64,000 bases of DNA from Escherichia phage UFV-AREG1: sequence record KX009778, one strand, 5' to 3'. Under the pieces are notes generated by a model. It was not told where the DNA came from. It saw only the letters and a list, made by a program, of their open reading frames with translations, and searched no databases. This document shows positions 3,876 through 37,256 of the stretch, piece by piece (the first letter of the stretch is position 1; every line of letters starts with the position of its first letter). Position numbers and translations under genes: made by a program.

Positions 3876-4556
3876 TTATTTTAATGTTACGAAAGAAGAA
3901 TTGCGTGTTTCACGAATTAAAACTGATCCGTCACGGTTAATGTAATAAATTAAGCTAAATAAAGTTTGGTGTGCTGACGCGTGTTCAAAACTAGTTGGGT
4001 GAGATTTCCAATCCGGAGTTTCAGCAATCCATTGATAAATCCACCAAGGAACAGTACAGAATCCTGGATTTTTTCCAATCAGCTGAAGATTCGGACTAAA
4101 GTTTTCCGGAAGAGTAAATACAGACGGCTTTTCAGATTCAATAATCTCAGCTACGGCCTGCTCGAATTTTTCTTCAACAAAAGGAGTATCTTCAATCAAA
4201 ACATCGGTATTTTCGGGAATTTTATCCGTTTCGACTACTTCAATTTTAATGTCAGATTTAACCGGAGAATCAATCAGAAGTGCTGCTTCTGGATTGACTT
4301 CTTCATCGTCATATTTTAATCCCTCTGCGGCATCAGCAGCATTGATTAAGTCTTTAATAGATAACCCATCAGTCTCTGGCATAGGTTCACTAGCGAGCTT
4401 CTGGAGGGCTTCTTCAATATCAATAACGATATTATCAAAAGATTTATTCTTTTTGACCTTTATACCAAACTGTTCAGCATATTCAGCTAATTTAGCTTTA
4501 GCTTCTTTATTATCATCAAGAGCCTTCAGCTCTGCAATATAATCTTTATCTATCAT
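3876..4556 (-). CDS. inh: Inhibitor of prohead protease Inh
   Basis: 226 aa acidic protein; position after hoc as in T4. Confidence 0.7.
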   Translation of the reverse strand: MIDKDYIAELKALDDNKEAKAKLAEYAEQFGIKVKKNKSFDNIVIDIEEALQKLASEPMPETDGLSIKDLINAADAAEGLKYDDEEVNPEAALLIDSPVKSDIKIEVVETDKIPENTDVLIEDTPFVEEKFEQAVAEIIESEKPSVFTLPENFSPNLQLIGKNPGFCTVPWWIYQWIAETPDWKSHPTSFEHASAHQTLFSLIYYINRDGSVLIRETRNSSFVTLK

Positions 4557-4569
4557 AATATTTCCTCAG

Positions 4570-4577
4570 TATAAATA
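4570..4577 (+). promoter_or_regulatory. T4 late promoter TATAAATA upstream of uvsW
   Basis: Exact TATAAATA about 30 nt upstream of uvsW ATG. Confidence 0.5.
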
Positions 4578-4606
4578 TAGATATATTTATTACATGGTAT
4601 TTAGAC

Positions 4607-6118
4607 ATGACTGACATTAAAGTACATTTTTATGATTTTAGTCACGTGAGAATTGATTGTGAAGAAAGTACATTTCATGAACTCCGTGATTTCTTTAGCT
4701 TTGAAGCTGATGGGTATCGTTTTAATCCTCGCTTCAGATATGGCAACTGGGATGGGCGAATCCGTCTTTTAGATTATAATCGACTTCTTCCATTCGGCTT
4801 AGTCGGGCAAATTAAAAAGTTCTGTGATAACTTTGGCTATAAAGCCTGGATTGACCCGCAGATTAACGAAAAAGAAGAATTATCAAGAAAAGATTTTGAT
4901 GAATGGCTTTCTAAATTAGAAATCTATTCAGGAAATAAAAGAATTGAACCGCATTGGTATCAAAAAGATGCAGTGTTCGAAGGATTAGTTAATCGTCGTA
5001 GAATTCTTAATCTTCCAACATCCGCAGGTAAATCCTTAATTCAAGCTTTGCTTGCACGTTATTATTTGGAAAATTATGAAGGTAAAATTCTTATCATTGT
5101 TCCAACAACTGCTTTGACAACTCAGATGGCTGATGACTTTGTTGACTATCGTTTATTCAGTCATGCAATGATAAAGAAAATCGGTGGTGGAGCATCAAAA
5201 GATGATAAATATAAAAATGATGCACCAGTCGTTGTTGGTACATGGCAAACTGTAGTAAAACAACCAAAAGAATGGTTTTCCCAATTTGGTATGATGATGA
5301 ATGATGAATGCCATCTTGCTACAGGAAAAAGTATTTCATCTATCATATCAGGTTTAAATAACTGCATGTTCAAATTTGGTCTATCGGGTTCATTACGTGA
5401 TGGCAAAGCTAATATCATGCAGTATGTTGGAATGTTTGGTGAAATATTTAAGCCAGTAACGACTTCTAAATTAATGGAAGATGGACAAGTAACTGAGTTA
5501 AAAATTAATAGTATTTTTCTTCGTTATCCTGATGAGTTCACTACTAAATTAAAGGGAAAAACTTACCAAGAAGAAATAAAAATTATTACTGGGCTCAGTA
5601 AAAGAAATAAATGGATCGCTAAATTAGCTATTAAACTTGCGCAAAAAGATGAAAACGCTTTTGTCATGTTTAAGCATGTATCACATGGTAAAGCTATTTT
5701 CGATTTAATTAAAAATGAATACGATAAAGTTTATTACGTATCAGGGGAAGTTGATACCGAAACCCGTAATGTAATGAAAACATTAGCTGAAAACGGTAAA
5801 GGAATAATTATAGTAGCTAGTTATGGTGTATTTTCTACTGGTATTTCAGTTAAAAATCTGCATCACGTTGTTTTAGCGCACGGTGTTAAATCTAAAATTA
5901 TTGTATTGCAAACAATAGGTCGTGTATTACGTAAGCATGGTTCTAAGACAATAGCAACAGTCTGGGACCTCATAGATGACGCGGGCGTGGTTTCTAAATC
6001 AAAAACATCTTCTAAAAAATACTCGCATTTAAACTATCTTTTAAAACATGGACTTGATCGTATTCAGCGTTATGCTGATGAAAAGTTTAATTATGTGATG
6101 AAAGAGGTTAAACTTTGA
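4607..6118 (+). CDS. uvsW: UvsW SF2 DNA helicase
   Basis: 503 aa; Walker A TSAGKS and DECH box NDECH; T4 UvsW length. Confidence 0.95.
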   Translation: MTDIKVHFYDFSHVRIDCEESTFHELRDFFSFEADGYRFNPRFRYGNWDGRIRLLDYNRLLPFGLVGQIKKFCDNFGYKAWIDPQINEKEELSRKDFDEWLSKLEIYSGNKRIEPHWYQKDAVFEGLVNRRRILNLPTSAGKSLIQALLARYYLENYEGKILIIVPTTALTTQMADDFVDYRLFSHAMIKKIGGGASKDDKYKNDAPVVVGTWQTVVKQPKEWFSQFGMMMNDECHLATGKSISSIISGLNNCMFKFGLSGSLRDGKANIMQYVGMFGEIFKPVTTSKLMEDGQVTELKINSIFLRYPDEFTTKLKGKTYQEEIKIITGLSKRNKWIAKLAIKLAQKDENAFVMFKHVSHGKAIFDLIKNEYDKVYYVSGEVDTETRNVMKTLAENGKGIIIVASYGVFSTGISVKNLHHVVLAHGVKSKIIVLQTIGRVLRKHGSKTIATVWDLIDDAGVVSKSKTSSKKYSHLNYLLKHGLDRIQRYADEKFNYVMKEVKL

Positions 6119-6807
6119 ATTATAAATTAATATATGATAATTTAATTAATAGAGCCCAGAATCGGGCTCGCCTTAATGGATACACTGAAACTCATCATAT
6201 AATTCCTAGATGTATGGGTGGTACAGATGATAGGTGTAATTTAGTAGAACTAACAGCTGAAGAACATTTTATAGCCCATAAACTTTTAGCTAAAATTCAT
6301 CCAAATCATTACGGTATAATTAAAGCCGTTATATGTATGGGAATGAACTCAAAGACTCATGAAAGACACGTTAATAAATCTTACGCATGGGAACGTCGTA
6401 AAATGGCAGAACTTCAATCCGGTGAAGGTAATCCATTTTACGGAAAACACCATACGGAAGAACATAAACAATATATGTCAAAACTCATGAAAAGTCGTCC
6501 AATTACATGGGGAAATAAAATTAGTAAAACTAAAAGAATGAACCCAACAAAATGGACCGAAGAAGCTAAAAGATTACATTCAATCAATCAATCGGGTAAA
6601 AATAATGGCATGTATGGAAGGAAACATTCCGCTAAATCTATTCAGAAAATTAAAGATAACATGCCAGATAATTCAGGAGCTAATAACCCAGCTGCTAAAC
6701 CTATAGAAGTAAATGGTGTTAAATATAAATGTATGAAAGACGCTTCTAAAGCTGCTGGATTATCAATGTACAAACTAAGAATACTCAGAAAAACAGTTAA
6801 TTTATAA
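6115..6807 (+). CDS. HNH homing endonuclease (Mob-like) with NUMOD-type C-terminal DNA-binding motifs
   Basis: 230 aa; HNH motif HHIIPRCMGG...NLVELTAEEHFIAH; repeated G(K/R)xHSxE motifs; TTG start overlapping uvsW stop (TTGA) with RBS aagagg. Confidence 0.85.
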   Translation: MNYKLIYDNLINRAQNRARLNGYTETHHIIPRCMGGTDDRCNLVELTAEEHFIAHKLLAKIHPNHYGIIKAVICMGMNSKTHERHVNKSYAWERRKMAELQSGEGNPFYGKHHTEEHKQYMSKLMKSRPITWGNKISKTKRMNPTKWTEEAKRLHSINQSGKNNGMYGRKHSAKSIQKIKDNMPDNSGANNPAAKPIEVNGVKYKCMKDASKAAGLSMYKLRILRKTVNL

Positions 6808-6819
6808 GGGCTTCGGCCC
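6808..6819 (+). terminator. Stem-loop immediately 3' of the HNH ORF
   Basis: gggc-ttcg-gccc hairpin between HNH stop and uvsW.1 RBS; weak T tract. Confidence 0.35.
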
Positions 6820-6832
6820 TTTGGAGAAAAAG

Positions 6833-7063
6833 ATGTTACTAGAATTTAAACAATTTCTTTATGAAGCTTCTATTGATGAATTTATGGGTAAAATTGCCTC
6901 TTGCCAAACGATAGAAGGTTTAGAAGAACTTGAAGCTTATTATAAGAAAAGAGTTAAAGAAACTGAATTAAAAGATACTGATGACATCTCAGTCAGAGAT
7001 GCTTTGGCAGGAAAAAGAGCTGAATTAGAAGATTCAGACGATGAAGTAGAAGAAAGCTTTTAA
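6833..7063 (+). CDS. uvsW.1: UvsW.1 small acidic protein
   Basis: 76 aa from ATG at 6833 (ORF track begins at upstream TTG 6821); syntenic with T4 uvsW.1. Confidence 0.7.
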   Translation: MLLEFKQFLYEASIDEFMGKIASCQTIEGLEELEAYYKKRVKETELKDTDDISVRDALAGKRAELEDSDDEVEESF

Positions 7064-7118
7064 ATTAAAAAAGGCCCAACCAAAAAGGAAGGGCCAAAAC
7101 TATAGACTAAAGGTCACA

Positions 7119-7286
7119 CTATAGCAAAAGTTGTGTTTCATTTAATTGTTCTTCAGAACTTTCTGAAACTGGTAGTTCTTTAATGTAATTATAGCAAGGC
7201 CCAGGATGTACAGGACCTTTGTCTGTTTCAACAACCAATGCAGAATCGATTGGAGTTTTACAGACAACACAAATCTTATCTGACAT
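7119..7286 (-). CDS. Small CxxC protein, uvsY.-2-like (not in ORF track, 55 aa)
   Basis: Hand-translated ORF MSDKICVVCKTPIDS...; strong RBS gaggag 6 nt upstream of ATG; stop TAG at 7119. Confidence 0.55.
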   Translation of the reverse strand: MSDKICVVCKTPIDSALVVETDKGPVHPGPCYNYIKELPVSESSEEQLNETQLLL

Positions 7287-7314
7287 GATTGTCTCCTCTA
7301 AATTATATATCTAT

Positions 7315-7539
7315 TTATATAACTCTCATATGCATATCAATACCCATATCTTTAGAATAAAAATATTCATCAAGATATCCGGCAAATTTTCCTTTAATAT
7401 AAAGTACATCTTCACCGCATGGGTGGTCGGCCAGGATACGAATATCCTGACGCTTGAGATTATACTTTTTCATTAAGAATTGAATTTCCGTTTCGAATTC
7501 TTCTTCATAATTAAAAGCATCATCAATGCTATATTTCAT
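7315..7539 (-). CDS. Hypothetical protein, uvsY.-1-like
   Basis: 74-aa ORF immediately downstream of uvsY with start/stop overlap. Confidence 0.6.
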   Translation of the reverse strand: MKYSIDDAFNYEEEFETEIQFLMKKYNLKRQDIRILADHPCGEDVLYIKGKFAGYLDEYFYSKDMGIDMHMRVI

Positions 7540-33864: not shown

Positions 33865-34854
33865 TCATAATTTACAGGATGAACAATCTTCAGCTTTTGG
33901 AGTTTCTATTTCATAATCATCAGTACCAGAACCATCGCGGGTATTATGATAATAGAAATTTTTTCCACCAAAATACCAAAAATACAAAAGGTCATCAATC
34001 ATTATTGACATTGGAACCTTTCCTTTTGGAAAAATCTGCGGGTCATAGTATGTATTCGCCGAAGCTGATTGACATACCCATTTCAGCATAATAGCTACCT
34101 GCGTGAGATAAGGTTTATTACCTTTCTTAGCTAATTTCCATGTATAATCATAGAGGTCTATGTTATGCTCAATATTGGGCACGACTTGATTAAAGGAGCC
34201 CTCTTTTGATTCTTTAACAGAGACTGGTCCACGTGGAGGCTCGATACCGTTTGTACTGTTAGAAACTTGGGAAGATGACTCACATGGCATAAGTGCTGAT
34301 AATGTGCTATTACGGATGCCAAAGAGCTTAAGGTCTTCCCGCAGCGACGACCAGTCACAAACGTATTTTGGAGCTGCGATTTGGTCAATCTTTTTATTGT
34401 ACCAGTCGATAGGTAATTCGCCTCGAGACCAACGAGTGTCTGAATAATATTCGCAAGGTCCTTTTTCTTTGGCGAGCTTAATGGATGCTTTAATGAGTCC
34501 ATACTGTAATCTCTCAAATAGTTCATGTGTTAAATCGTTAGCATCTTCATAAGAAGCAAAGTTACTTGCCAGCCAAGCTGCATAGTTGGTAACACCTACA
34601 CCGAGGTTACGACGCTTTTTAGCTTTTTCTGCTTCAGGAACTGGATATCCTTGGTAATCCAACAGATTATCAAGAGCACGAACTTGAACTTCTGCCAATT
34701 CATTAATTTTATCTTGGTCTTGCCAGTCAAAATTATCCAGTACGAATGCAGAGAGAGTACAAAGGCCCACTTCACCTTTGTTTTCAATAACTTGTATTGT
34801 TGTATACTCATCATCTTCGTAAAATTCATCTACAAATTCATAATCAATATTCAT
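33865..34854 (-). CDS. nrdA: Ribonucleotide reductase large subunit, C-terminal fragment (nrdA-b)
   Basis: 329 aa; NrdA C-terminus incl. CTLSAF (E. coli C462 region) and C-terminal CxxxxC tail (EDCSSCKL); own ATG overlapping HNH stop. Confidence 0.85.
   Translation of the reverse strand: MNIDYEFVDEFYEDDEYTTIQVIENKGEVGLCTLSAFVLDNFDWQDQDKINELAEVQVRALDNLLDYQGYPVPEAEKAKKRRNLGVGVTNYAAWLASNFASYEDANDLTHELFERLQYGLIKASIKLAKEKGPCEYYSDTRWSRGELPIDWYNKKIDQIAAPKYVCDWSSLREDLKLFGIRNSTLSALMPCESSSQVSNSTNGIEPPRGPVSVKESKEGSFNQVVPNIEHNIDLYDYTWKLAKKGNKPYLTQVAIMLKWVCQSASANTYYDPQIFPKGKVPMSIMIDDLLYFWYFGGKNFYYHNTRDGSGTDDYEIETPKAEDCSSCKL
34649..34761. repeat. Direct repeat A, copy 1 (113 bp, inside nrdA-b)
   Basis: Identical to 35776..35888; encodes GLCTLSAFVLDNFDWQDQDKINELAEVQVRALDNLLDYQG. 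Confidence 0.85.
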
Positions 34855-35687
34855 TTAATTCTTCTACCTTTTTTCGAGATATTCCTAGAGCTTTAGATGC
34901 TCGATGTATTGATTGATATTCTATACCGTTTATTTTTACAGCAATTAAGTTATGGGGTTTTAATCCCTTTGGATGAGGTTTACTGACGTATTCTTGATTA
35001 TCGTTTTCAGAGATGTTATCAAGCTTTCGACACTTAAAGCCTTTATGTTGAGACCTTTTGCCTTTGCATACGGCCGACATTGCCGAAGCATTGAGTGAAT
35101 GTAGTTCGCAAAATTCTCTTAGGCCTTTATGGATTTCTTCATGACCGTCCGGGAAAGTAAATACCCAAGTTGTTTGAAGTTTTTCTCTATGCTCGTCAGT
35201 TACCGGAATACCTTTGTTCCAAGCTGGTTTGCCTTTATTATTTTCAGATACAGAAATAGCCAATTTTCTTCTAAGCCACCCATGGCGTTTATTGGTGTTC
35301 TTTCGTTCAATATTATCTTCAGAATAAACACACATCATATTAGCGGCAAATACCAATTTATGATTATCTGGATATATCTTTACTAATAATTGATGAGCTA
35401 TGTAATGCTCTTCGGGTGTCAAATCTACCAGGTTTTCCTTTGTATCAGAACCACCAATACACAGAGGTATAATATGGTGTGATTCGGTATAGCAATCTAA
35501 TTTTCTGTTCTTAGCTTTAGAAATAAGGTTATTGTAAATTTTAGAATAATCCATAACTTTTCCTCTTGTTATGGATTATTTATTAACGGACTGTGTACTT
35601 TATTTGCTTTGAATTATACCGCCAGGATTAGCTTCATAAAACTTAGCTACATCCGACTTCTTAATTTTGATTAAACGGGTTTGTTGG
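34762..35687 (-). mobile_element. HNH homing-endonuclease insertion cassette splitting nrdA
   Basis: About 0.9 kb between duplicated nrdA segments, containing the HNH ORF plus a new N-terminal extension for nrdA-b. Confidence 0.7.
34844..35554 (-). CDS. HNH homing endonuclease (Mob-like) inserted in nrdA
   Basis: 236 aa; HNH motif HHIIPLCIGG...NLVDLTPEEHYIAH; C-terminal NUMOD-like GISRKKV; paralogue of ORF 6115..6807. Confidence 0.85.
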   Translation of the reverse strand: MDYSKIYNNLISKAKNRKLDCYTESHHIIPLCIGGSDTKENLVDLTPEEHYIAHQLLVKIYPDNHKLVFAANMMCVYSEDNIERKNTNKRHGWLRRKLAISVSENNKGKPAWNKGIPVTDEHREKLQTTWVFTFPDGHEEIHKGLREFCELHSLNASAMSAVCKGKRSQHKGFKCRKLDNISENDNQEYVSKPHPKGLKPHNLIAVKINGIEYQSIHRASKALGISRKKVEELNEY

Positions 35688-35774
35688 CTATTCACATCAT
35701 TTGTTGGAATAGCAATTTCACAGCACAAGTTACTCTGACGAATAGGTGCCTTTTCACGAATAAACGGAGTATAG
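35688..35774. repeat. Direct repeat B, copy 1 (87 bp)
   Basis: Identical to 35911..35997; encodes YTPFIREKAPIRQSNLCCEIAIPTNDVNS. Confidence 0.85.
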
Positions 35775-37256
35775 ACCTTGGTAATCCAACAGATTATCAA
35801 GAGCACGAACTTGAACTTCTGCCAATTCATTAATTTTATCTTGGTCTTGCCAGTCAAAATTATCCAGTACGAATGCAGAGAGAGTACACAATCCAATTTC
35901 AGCATCAGGACTATTCACATCATTTGTTGGAATAGCAATTTCACAGCACAAGTTACTCTGACGAATAGGTGCCTTTTCACGAATAAACGGAGTATAGTTA
36001 TTCGTATTATCAATGAACTGCACATAAATCCTTGCTGTTCCTGAGCGTTCAGTCATGAGCAATTCAAATAGTTCACGGGCTTTAATACGCTTTTTACGAA
36101 TATTAGGGTCTTTTTCTGCTGCTTCGTATAATTCACGGAAACGGTCTTGGTCTTTAAAATAAGAATAATAAAGCTCGCCACCCATTTCATGTGGACTGAA
36201 CAAAGTAATATAATCGTTCTTTCCGAATCGTTCCATCATCAAATCATTCAGTTGAACACCATAATCCATATGACGAATGCGGTTTTCTTCTACGCCTTTG
36301 TTATTTTTCAAAACGAGAAGATTTTCAACTTCCAAATGCCAAATAGGATAATAAGCAGTAGCAGCGCCGCCACGAATTCCACCCTGTGAACATGATTTAA
36401 CTGCAGTCTGAAAATGTTTCCAAAAAGGAATAACACCAGTATGACGTACTTCACCCATGCCAATTTTAGAACCTTCAGCACGAATCATACCAACATTAAT
36501 ACCAATTCCAGCGCGTTTAGAGATATATTCAACAATTGAAGCGGAAGCCTTATTGATAGACTTCAATGAATCTCCTGCCTCAATAACGACGCATGAACTA
36601 AACTGCCGAGTTGGAGTACGACAGCCAGCCATAATAGGAGTTGGTAATGAAATCTGTCGAGTAGATACCGCTTCATAAAAACGAATAACGTGTTTTAATC
36701 TATCAACAGGTTCATCTTGATGCAATGCCATTCCAATAGTCATAAATGCAAACTGTGGAGTTTCATAAATTTGACCAGTGGTTTTATCTTTAACGAGATA
36801 TTTTTCTTTTAATTGCATCGCCCCGGAATAAGTAAATTCCATATCCCGCTCGTGCTTAATTTTTGATTCTAAAAATGTAATTTCTTCTGCTGAATATTTT
36901 GACAGCAGTTCAGGGTCATATTTACCTTCATTTACACAGTAAGAAATATGGTCAATAAATGAACGTGGTTCATATTGTCCGTAAACATGCTTACGAAGAG
37001 CAAACATTAAACAGCGTGCAGCTACATATTGATAATCAGGTTCTTCAACCGAAATAGAATTCGCAGCGGCCTTAATGACAATAGTCTGAATATCATCAGT
37101 GGTCATTCCATCACGGAGATATGATTTAATATTTTCATATAATTCATAAGGATCTACAGATGTTCCTTCAGCTGCCCAAGATAAAACTTTAATAATTTTT
37201 TGTGGGTCAAAGCTCTGAGAAACACCACTACTTTTGATAACATTAATTAATTGCAT
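35754..37256 (-). CDS. nrdA: Ribonucleotide reductase large subunit, N-terminal fragment (nrdA-a)
   Basis: 500 aa; N-terminal ATP-cone and catalytic core incl. NLCCEIAIP (E. coli N437/C439/E441 equivalent); ends 6 codons after repeat A. Confidence 0.85.
   Translation of the reverse strand: MQLINVIKSSGVSQSFDPQKIIKVLSWAAEGTSVDPYELYENIKSYLRDGMTTDDIQTIVIKAAANSISVEEPDYQYVAARCLMFALRKHVYGQYEPRSFIDHISYCVNEGKYDPELLSKYSAEEITFLESKIKHERDMEFTYSGAMQLKEKYLVKDKTTGQIYETPQFAFMTIGMALHQDEPVDRLKHVIRFYEAVSTRQISLPTPIMAGCRTPTRQFSSCVVIEAGDSLKSINKASASIVEYISKRAGIGINVGMIRAEGSKIGMGEVRHTGVIPFWKHFQTAVKSCSQGGIRGGAATAYYPIWHLEVENLLVLKNNKGVEENRIRHMDYGVQLNDLMMERFGKNDYITLFSPHEMGGELYYSYFKDQDRFRELYEAAEKDPNIRKKRIKARELFELLMTERSGTARIYVQFIDNTNNYTPFIREKAPIRQSNLCCEIAIPTNDVNSPDAEIGLCTLSAFVLDNFDWQDQDKINELAEVQVRALDNLLDYQGLYSVYS
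35776..35888. repeat. Direct repeat A, copy 2 (113 bp, inside nrdA-a)
   Basis: Identical to 34649..34761. Confidence 0.85.
35911..35997. repeat. Direct repeat B, copy 2 (87 bp, inside nrdA-a)
   Basis: Identical to 35688..35774. Confidence 0.85.

Follow-up and report, generated by a model that had tools for sequence, protein, structure and literature searches.

The ORF that follows the uvsW helicase gene of Escherichia phage UFV-AREG1 (sequence record KX009778) is, with good probability, a Mob-family homing-endonuclease cassette that sits at the uvsW junction, is expressed with uvsW, and homes into HNH-less uvsW alleles with co-conversion of flanking sequence; the nuclease activity is predicted by analogy. 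The ORF encodes 230 aa and occupies positions 6115-6807 (+) of the window, the 64,000-nucleotide stretch of DNA that was analysed. Two signs mark it as a mobile element: the site is polymorphic among close relatives, and polymorphism in the flank is linked to it. The gene is an ordinary element, behaving as a textbook free-standing homing endonuclease, and is already known, with labelled database entries for dozens of genomes, that of the classical phage T6 among them.

The original prediction of a 230-aa HNH ORF at these positions, with a TTG start codon over the uvsW stop codon and a ribosome-binding site inside the end of uvsW, is borne out: the TTG lies at 6115-6117, the uvsW stop TGA at 6116-6118, and a Shine-Dalgarno sequence, AAGAGG, at 6102-6107, 7 nt before the start. 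Homology backs the choice of TTG; in orthologues the start codon, whether ATG, GTG or TTG, stands at the same 'MNY' position. The HNH catalytic core, residues 23-55 (YTETHHIIPRCMGGTDDRCNLVELTAEEHFIAH; 6181-6279, +), contains HHIIP..GG....N.V.L...EH...H, in which the conserved histidine (general base), the asparagine and the histidine/metal ligands stand at canonical spacing. Across 56 homologues H28, N42, H51, and H55 never vary, and a group II intron maturase has an HNH to which the segment aligns position by position. The Pfam HNH model PF01844 scores 16.0 bits (E 0.014) against the ORF, below its gathering score of 21.4 bits. An AF2 model (pLDDT 87) places strands at residues 25-28 and 43-46 ahead of a helix at 48-61; Foldseek matches of this model to HNH structures have E values of 0.19 or higher.

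The repeated NUMOD-like motifs that had been noticed in the translation correspond to a Pfam NUMOD3 match in two parts (E 7e-14), the first at residues 94-122 (6394-6480, +) and the second at about residues 160-183 (about 6592-6663, +). The C-terminal region, residues 157-216 (6583-6762, +), resembles the DNA-binding domain of I-TevI (PDB 1i3j) both by phmmer (E 0.006) and by Foldseek, for which 1i3j is the best match of the ORF model (probability 1.00, E 0.05); the Pfam I-TevI DNA-binding match is weak. In PHROGs the ORF falls into phrog_655, 'homing endonuclease' (E 1e-59). By these comparisons it is a real, intact HNH/NUMOD3 gene of the T4 Mob type, with a predicted endonuclease role.

The uvsW gene (4607-6118, +) encodes a helicase of 503 aa (UvsW_N, ResIII/DEAD, Helicase_C), and its core has 96% nucleotide identity to T2. 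Relative to T2 and T4, the insertion consists of a cassette of about 689 bp within the last 15 nt or so of uvsW. At its left end the cassette brings in a stop codon and a recoded uvsW tail, ATGAAAGAGGTTAAACTTTGA (6098-6118, +; MKEVKL-stop), which carries the AAGAGG and the TTGA start/stop overlap and doubles as the Shine-Dalgarno region of the endonuclease gene. The right boundary is the native uvsW tail, AAAACAGTTAATTTATAA (6790-6807, +; KTVNL-stop), which is identical to that of T2, T4T, and resequenced T4 and now closes the HNH ORF as its final five codons and stop; termination of this ORF is thus provided by the native tail, its stop codon, and the downstream UUCG hairpin. That hairpin, a GGGC-UUCG-GCCC tetraloop (6808-6819, +), is native to the uvsW/uvsW.1 spacer of T2 and T4. 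Comparison of the junction with T2 and T4 corrects the description of the endonuclease as fused onto uvsW: the two are separate ORFs with a 4-nt overlap and a duplicated, recoded uvsW tail. The HNH ORF is free-standing, lying as its own ORF between two others with flanks contiguous with T2/T4 sequence, and an Rfam scan of 4400-7400 gave no family, group I introns included, at E<=1. Downstream, uvsW.1 (6833-7063, +; 76 aa, Shine-Dalgarno GGAG at 6823-6826) matches its T4 counterpart at 99% identity, and the aligned sequences contain no HNH-linked polymorphism within it. The cassette is tidily designed, bringing a replacement tail for its host gene and borrowing the host's native one, and UvsW and UvsW.1 are therefore essentially unchanged.

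The T4 reference record (NC_000866.4) presents a different picture, a single uvsW of 587 aa that aligns over both the uvsW and the uvsW.1 ORFs of the window, and the annotation of phage PST reads uvsW-A / mobD / uvsW-B; these records could suggest a gene in pieces, in which the endonuclease broke a once-continuous 587-aa uvsW into uvsW-A and uvsW-B, with fractured-gene parallels in Aeh1 nrdA and T4 genes 39/60. Such a history is scarcely credible. Resequenced T4 (MT984581), T4T, T2, and HNH-less metagenomic relatives read ...AATTTATAAGGGCTTCGGCCC... across the junction, giving two ORFs 25 nt apart, and the T4 RefSeq sequence departs from the resequenced genomes within the 5' arm of the GC hairpin at 6808-6819 and immediately ahead of it. 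Published statements have it that resequencing bore out two ORFs and that the single-gene record is probably an error (PMC1524935; PMC6486255). No fusion of UvsW to UvsW.1 occurs among 74 close homologues found by a word-indexed search, all of 52-96 aa, nor does a helicase fusion appear among the 36 matches of a full HMM search of 1.84 billion representative proteins. The 587-aa RefSeq uvsW is thus a sequencing error, and no gene was split by the HNH element; the split-gene candidate, first suggested by that record, is ruled out by resequenced T4, T4T, T2, and the literature. Aeh1 nrdA and T4 39/60 do resemble the present locus in having a Mob-type endonuclease between two ORFs for parts of one enzyme complex (PMC2988022), but there the split was made by mobE and mobA, whereas uvsW and uvsW.1 are separate even in endonuclease-free phages, and the insertion is therefore not the cause of their separation. 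The 587-aa record and the 'uvsW-A/uvsW-B' annotations serve as a warning, since they spread a sequencing error.

Within the window the junction HNH has a paralogue, a Mob-type HNH ORF of 236 aa that interrupts nrdA (34844-35554, -). The proposed paralogy stands, with 34.7% identity over the full length (E 8e-37) in pairwise alignment; a special kinship with the nrdA copy does not, the closest T4 relative being instead MobE (41% over 181 aa). BLASTP against MobA-E gives E values of 1e-19 to 6e-33, and MobD matches the junction HNH at 59% identity over the N-terminal 75 aa only. Orthology to T4 mobD or mobE, as the name in the PST record would have it, was considered and rejected: the matches are partial (75 aa for MobD, 181 aa for MobE), and the genomic positions differ, with T4 mobD adjoining nrdC.11, T4 mobE lying between nrdA and nrdB, and neither at uvsW. 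The junction HNH is thus assigned by sequence to the T4 Mob family (MobA-E), within which it forms a separate lineage specific to the uvsW|uvsW.1 junction.

MobE provides the closest experimental model. The mobE gene is promoterless and transcribed together with its upstream gene, it contains an internal terminator hairpin 27 nt after its AUG, and its product makes a strand-specific nick in T2 nrdB (Wilson and Edgell, 2009; PMC2790892). The junction HNH shares with it the N-terminal HNH module, the lack of a promoter, a place directly against the upstream gene and in the same orientation, a GC-rich hairpin some 30 nt after the start of the ORF, and a neighbouring gene with a diverged tract linked to endonuclease presence. 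It differs in its locus and presumed target (uvsW, as opposed to nrdB for MobE), in a C-terminal half that is unalignable past the NUMOD3 repeats, and in a hairpin with no evident poly(U) tract; nicking and mobility are experimental for MobE and predicted here.

The hairpin in question, GAGCCC-AGAAUC-GGGCUC (6152-6169, +), begins 37 nt into the HNH ORF and has a folding energy of -12 kcal/mol (z -3.5), with none of 200 shuffled sequences folding as well. In all eight junction-HNH ORFs compared, and in T4 mobE and mobA as well, such a hairpin ranks first among local folds of 30 nt; the position is conserved while the stem sequences differ. By placement it corresponds to the internal terminator hairpin of mobE, but a terminator role is uncertain because a clear U tract is missing. 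A fold at 6090-6135 that might hide the Shine-Dalgarno sequence and start codon is not significant (z -1.55). Sigma-70 promoter-like sites are no commoner than in shuffled sequence. The T4 late-promoter consensus TATAAATA occurs around the uvsW-HNH locus solely upstream of uvsW, in the inh-uvsW spacer (4570-4577, +); the motif is not enriched across the window, so that its position upstream of uvsW alone is used as evidence. The HNH gene has no promoter of its own and would probably share the uvsW transcript made from the late promoter at 4570. Its translation would probably be weak and coupled to that of uvsW (TTG start, 4-nt overlap), and the mobE-like hairpin would probably lower expression further.

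One sign of homing lies in uvsW itself, whose last 130 nt or so is about 70% identical to T2/T4, against 96% for the core. This diverged tract, from about nt 1385 to 1512 of the gene (5991-6118, +), has 39 nucleotide differences from T2/T4 within the last 130 nt, where the core has 1-6 per 60 nt, and only 0-2 differences from the HNH-bearing phages T6, PST, and F26; downstream of the HNH ORF the alignment contains no HNH-linked differences. A 140-nt allele of the tract is found at >=95% identity in exactly 47 records, with all others at <=90%; this number equals that of cassette carriers as a match of counts, with a record-by-record check covering six aligned sequences. By nucleotide comparison the tract is as diverged as sequences of different genera. 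A search for its donor found none, the nearest match being Dhakavirus PSD2002 at 73%. The tract was probably imported together with the cassette and probably protects the carrier from its own enzyme, although the diverged flank could instead be pure hitch-hiking from the donor. By analogy with MobE, the target in a mixed infection would be the uvsW allele of a partner phage that lacks the HNH gene, nicked or cut by the protein probably within nt ~1385-1500 of uvsW. Repair by recombination would then carry over both the cassette and the ~130 nt of uvsW next to it.

The same ORF occupies the same slot, at 96-99.9% nucleotide identity, in 47 phage records of about 900 related ones in GenBank/RefSeq, so that occupancy of the site is about 5% and patchy; these population figures are from phage collections, since an IMG/VR scan gave only nine loci. 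As originally stated, T4 has no ORF between uvsW and uvsW.1, and the same is true of T2, but close relatives do carry this ORF at the locus, a finding named beforehand as one that would refute the observation, among them T6, Yersinia phage PST, and Escherichia phages ACG-C40, HY03, F26, and G8. Carriers share the TTGA overlap with uvsW, the flanks, and the linked uvsW 3' tract, and their annotations of the ORF read 'homing endonuclease', 'mobD/MobE' or 'NUMOD3 motif protein'. Beyond these, orthologues at 54-70% amino acid identity lie in the identical slot in seven of seven cases from other genera (Dhakavirus, one Morganella Gualtarvirus, and five metagenomic T4-like contigs).

This distribution bears on whether the gene is an inactive relic that once homed and is now catalytically dead or immobile, kept by its linkage to uvsW. 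Fixation at one site that is about 5% occupied would fit such a relic, as would the shortening of some copies, at least two of which appear degenerate (146 aa in UFV-AREG1, 689 nt in BF15), and T4 itself has defunct endonucleases, such as I-TevIII. A relic is nonetheless unlikely: copies within Tequatrovirus are under purifying selection (dN/dS 0.03-0.08, with dS up to 0.18), the catalytic residues are invariant in homologues, the ORF is intact in all six translated copies, almost all 47 records align across the full 693 nt, and several genera hold intact orthologues. The cassette also stands on both segE+ and segE- backgrounds, which argues for continuing exchange. Strong purifying selection and a slot conserved across genera would suit a co-opted nuclease that mainly serves the phage, with self-spread secondary, for instance by shutting out or destroying related phages in the same cell, or by promoting recombination or amplification around the recombination genes uvsW-uvsY; work on T6 showed that its homing endonuclease SegB promotes amplification of anti-defence loci (PMC13096335). 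Co-option is very unlikely here, as nothing at the uvsW junction points to a cargo or anti-defence gene, and the patchy 5% distribution with a linked conversion tract is what a selfish element predicts. Homing remains the preferred reading. An improbable extension of it holds that the junction endonucleases are an old one-site lineage that repeatedly re-invades uvsW|uvsW.1 across the Straboviridae; in its boldest form, the universal separation of the helicase from UvsW.1, its small acidic partner, would be the scar of an ancient invasion, and the hairpin within the ORF, which mobE and mobA have too, would control expression throughout the family.

The opposite end of uvsW has an endonuclease site of its own. 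SegE is a GIY-YIG free-standing endonuclease encoded between inh and uvsW in T4 and targeting uvsW (review table, PMC2988022). T4 and T6 have the 618-bp segE there; T2 and F26 do not. In the window, inh (3876-4556, -) ends at 4556 and uvsW starts at 4607, leaving a 50-bp spacer (4557-4606) as an empty segE site, just as the absence of segE and a gap of about 50 bp had been described. The first 120 nt of uvsW (4607-4726, +) form a 'segE-less' allele, identical to T2 and 31-32 nt different from the segE-bearing T4, T6, and PST. SegE thus differs from the HNH element in family, in the end of uvsW that it flanks, and in its absence from the window, but resembles it in that a uvsW tract of about 120 nt co-varies with segE as the 3' tract does with the HNH gene. 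T6, PST, and ACG-C40 carry segE and otherwise show no difference of substance from the window; F26, SYGD1, and RPN226 are segE-less as it is. The endonuclease complement does differ from that of T4, as proposed, in lacking segE and having the junction HNH. All four segE/HNH combinations exist (T2 -/-, T4 +/-, the window -/+, T6 +/+), and the absence of segE is therefore an ordinary presence/absence polymorphism.

The junction HNH matters little for discovery and has modest specialist value. That value lies in the presence of an independent endonuclease cassette at either end of uvsW, segE on the 5' side and HNH on the 3' side, each with a sharply bounded linked tract; with four states in nature, the locus offers a clean natural system for co-conversion and self-immunity. 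A literature search around uvsW, uvsW.1, T6, mobE, and ACG-C40 homing endonucleases found no description of the junction HNH gene. The paper on UFV-AREG1 lists UvsW helicase as CDS 184 and 186 and passes over the interval between them.

The window is a Tequatrovirus (T4-like) segment in which the gene order hoc, inh, uvsW, ORF X, uvsW.1, uvsY.-2, uvsY.-1, uvsY, 25, 26 is syntenic with T4, T6 and PST. ORF X (6115-6807, + strand) encodes 230 aa; as the original prediction described, its TTG start overlaps the uvsW stop codon (CTT-TGA / TTG-A) and a ribosome-binding site, AAGAGG, lies 7 nt upstream within the final uvsW codons. The TTG is supported as the start because orthologues share this 'MNY' start position, using ATG, GTG or TTG. 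The predicted homing endonuclease identity holds: ORF X belongs to phrog_655 'homing endonuclease' (PHROGs, E 1e-59) and has NUMOD3 in two stretches (Pfam, E 7e-14), with a sub-threshold HNH match (16 bits vs 21.4) and a weak I-TevI DNA-binding match. The other HNH protein of the window (34844-35554, - strand), proposed as a paralogue, is also in phrog_655 and aligns with ORF X at 34.7% identity over the full length of both proteins. Among T4 Mob proteins, the free-standing HNH endonucleases MobA-E, the best match is MobE (41% over 181 aa); MobD aligns only across its N-terminal 75 aa, with 59% identity. ORF X is orthologous to no T4 Mob gene, so the PST gene name 'mobD' is a loose one.

ORF X is an ordinary free-standing homing endonuclease that has been annotated already. 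Full-length copies of the 693-nt ORF, 96-99.9% identical, are found in 47 phage records, including T6, PST, ACG-C40 (99.9%), HY03, PYPS2T, F26 and G8; it adjoins uvsW in all of them and is usually labelled 'homing endonuclease'. The claim that it is of special interest at this locus therefore fails by the original prediction's own refutation criterion, since close relatives such as T6 have the same ORF at the same junction. Full-length orthologues outside these records have 54-70% aa identity, and all seven that could be located (in Dhakavirus PSD2002, Morganella phage Rgz1 (Gualtarvirus), MT446411 and four metagenomic T4-like contigs) occupy the same slot, starting 4 nt before the uvsW stop with uvsW.1 directly 3'.

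The T4 RefSeq record is misleading on whether the endonuclease splits a continuous uvsW. NC_000866.4 annotates a single 587-aa uvsW covering both window ORFs, and the PST record uses the names uvsW-A / mobD / uvsW-B, both of which suggest a split gene; this is ruled out by resequenced T4 (MT984581), T4T and T2, which share the reading ...GTTAATTTATAAGGGCTTCGGCCC... and have a uvsW of 502-503 aa ending MKTVNL*, a 25-nt spacer containing a GGGC-UUCG-GCCC hairpin, and a separate uvsW.1 of 76 aa. As predicted, T4 has no endonuclease at this junction. The T4 RefSeq deviates solely within and immediately ahead of the hairpin's 5' arm (4170-4200 of the T4 locus, corresponding to window 6795-6820), with AATTTA-ATAAGCTTCGGCCC where resequenced T4, T4T and T2 have AATTTATAAGGGCTTCGGCCC; AF158101 shares the deviation, which produces the spurious 587-aa uvsW. 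Two ORFs were confirmed by resequencing (Nolan et al. 2006; PMC1524935), and a later genome note attributed the single-gene record to a probable sequencing error (PMC6486255). Neither 74 close homologues nor the matches in 1.84 billion representative proteins included a UvsW-UvsW.1 fusion; with uvsW and uvsW.1 separate in T2/T4, the endonuclease therefore lies between two natively separate genes. The spurious reference is still in use and has been carried over into the 'uvsW-A/uvsW-B' names and into annotations that label uvsW.1 'DNA helicase'. The UvsW.1 domain (PF11637) is also N-terminal in unannotated proteins of ~260-300 aa (P0213-P0228), one with a weak cytidylyltransferase-like match; among the proteins of the 1.84-billion-representative search it was not found fused to the UvsW helicase. 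An inverted repeat, GGCCC...GGGCC, with A/T runs on either side lies between uvsW.1 and uvsY.-2 (7064-7118), which converge, at the place where Nolan et al. 2006 (PMC1524935) described a conserved bidirectional terminator.

Relative to T2/T4 the net insert is ~689 bp. At its left junction uvsW ends ATGAAA-GAGGTTAAACTT-TGA (MKEVKL*), in place of the native ATGAAA-ACAGTTAATTTA-TAA (MKTVNL*); the new tail is a recoded copy of the native one, and it is this recoding that creates the Shine-Dalgarno sequence of ORF X. The native tail AAAACAGTTAATTTATAA (6790-6807) now supplies the final five codons and stop of ORF X, beyond which the spacer hairpin and uvsW.1 are unchanged. The same design is seen in two further lineages: in PSD2002 uvsW ends KEVQI* and the HNH ORF KQVDL*, the latter being the uvsW tail of an HNH-less relative, and in MT446411 a perfect 19-nt repeat gives both ORFs the ending IKQVEI*.

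The cassette is polymorphic and linked to a divergent uvsW tract. Six genomes cover all four segE/HNH states: T2 (-/-), T4T (+/-), the window and F26 (-/+), and T6 and PST (+/+). The last part of uvsW (nt ~1385-1512, 39 differences) co-varies with the HNH only; many of the changes are silent, third-position ones, and identity to T2 is ~70%, a between-genera level, vs 96% for the uvsW core. The first part (nt 1-120, 31-32 differences) co-varies perfectly with segE only, and in the window (4607-4726) is the T2-type, segE-less allele; segE is absent here, as predicted, with a 50-bp inh-uvsW gap where a 618-bp segE occupies the T4 site. The ~1250 nt between the two tracts (0-9 differences per 60 nt, typically 1-4) and uvsW.1, which has no HNH-linked change, co-vary with neither. 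A search with the 140-nt tract returned exactly 47 records at >=95% identity, all others being <=90%. Co-variation and matching counts indicate that the cassette moves together with ~130 nt of foreign uvsW, as has been described for mobE/nrdB and seg genes (PMC2988022; PMC2790892).

ORF X is maintained by purifying selection: dN/dS is 0.03-0.08 among six Tequatrovirus copies (dS up to 0.18), and 56 homologues all retain H28, N42, H51 and H55. In the AlphaFold model (pLDDT 87) two strands and a helix form the N-terminal module, the NUMOD3 repeats are helical, and the C-terminal part comprises a strand-hairpin and helices. A few copies appear decayed (UFV-AREG1, 146 aa; BF15, 689 nt).

The sole late-promoter consensus in the vicinity, TATAAATA (4570-4577), is 5' of uvsW, and ORF X has a weak TTG start that is coupled to termination of uvsW. 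ORF X also contains, 37 nt in, a GC-rich hairpin (6152-6169; -12 kcal/mol, z -3.5). In 8/8 independent ORFs of the junction-HNH group (including loci L019, L021, L023 and L028-L031), as in T4 mobE and mobA, such a hairpin gives the most stable local fold of 30 nt, always at nt ~33-60 of the Mob-type ORF, with differing stem sequences; it is absent from mobB, mobC, mobD and the window's nrdA HNH. The peptide encoded there differs between ORFs in ways that preserve the stem. A stem-loop in mobE, 27 nt past the AUG, acts as a weak intrinsic terminator (PMC2790892). The ORF X hairpin is its equivalent but lacks a clear U tract 3', so its role here is inferred and may be that of a terminator, translational brake or stability element. 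The sequence comparisons show the family of ORF X, the structure of the cassette, its polymorphism, the linked tract and purifying selection. By analogy with MobE, ORF X would be co-transcribed with uvsW and translated by coupling at a low level; its product would nick or cut the uvsW 3' region of a co-infecting HNH-less phage, repair would then copy the cassette and linked tract, and tract substitutions would protect the carrier. That the junction ORFs form a clade dedicated to one site in several genera, and that the tail is duplicated, the tract sharply bounded and the hairpin conserved, are tidy details but expected for this class of element.

The paralogous Mob-type HNH lies inside a split nrdA (33865-37256, - strand), an arrangement also found in 33 other phage records (among them REP2, HY01 and PEC04). 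Compared with REP2, the window has an extra ~223-nt duplication, notably at 35688-36006: a 96-nt segment occurs at both 35688-35783 and 35911-36006, and one of 126 nt at both 34649-34774 and 35776-35901. NrdA-A consequently continues through uninterrupted sequence of the T4 type (PDAEIGLCTLS...DYQG), terminates in LYSVYS* and lacks the REP2 C-terminal extension QQTRLIKIKK...IIQSK; the duplication may reflect an intermediate of recombination with an intact nrdA allele, or else a chimeric assembly.
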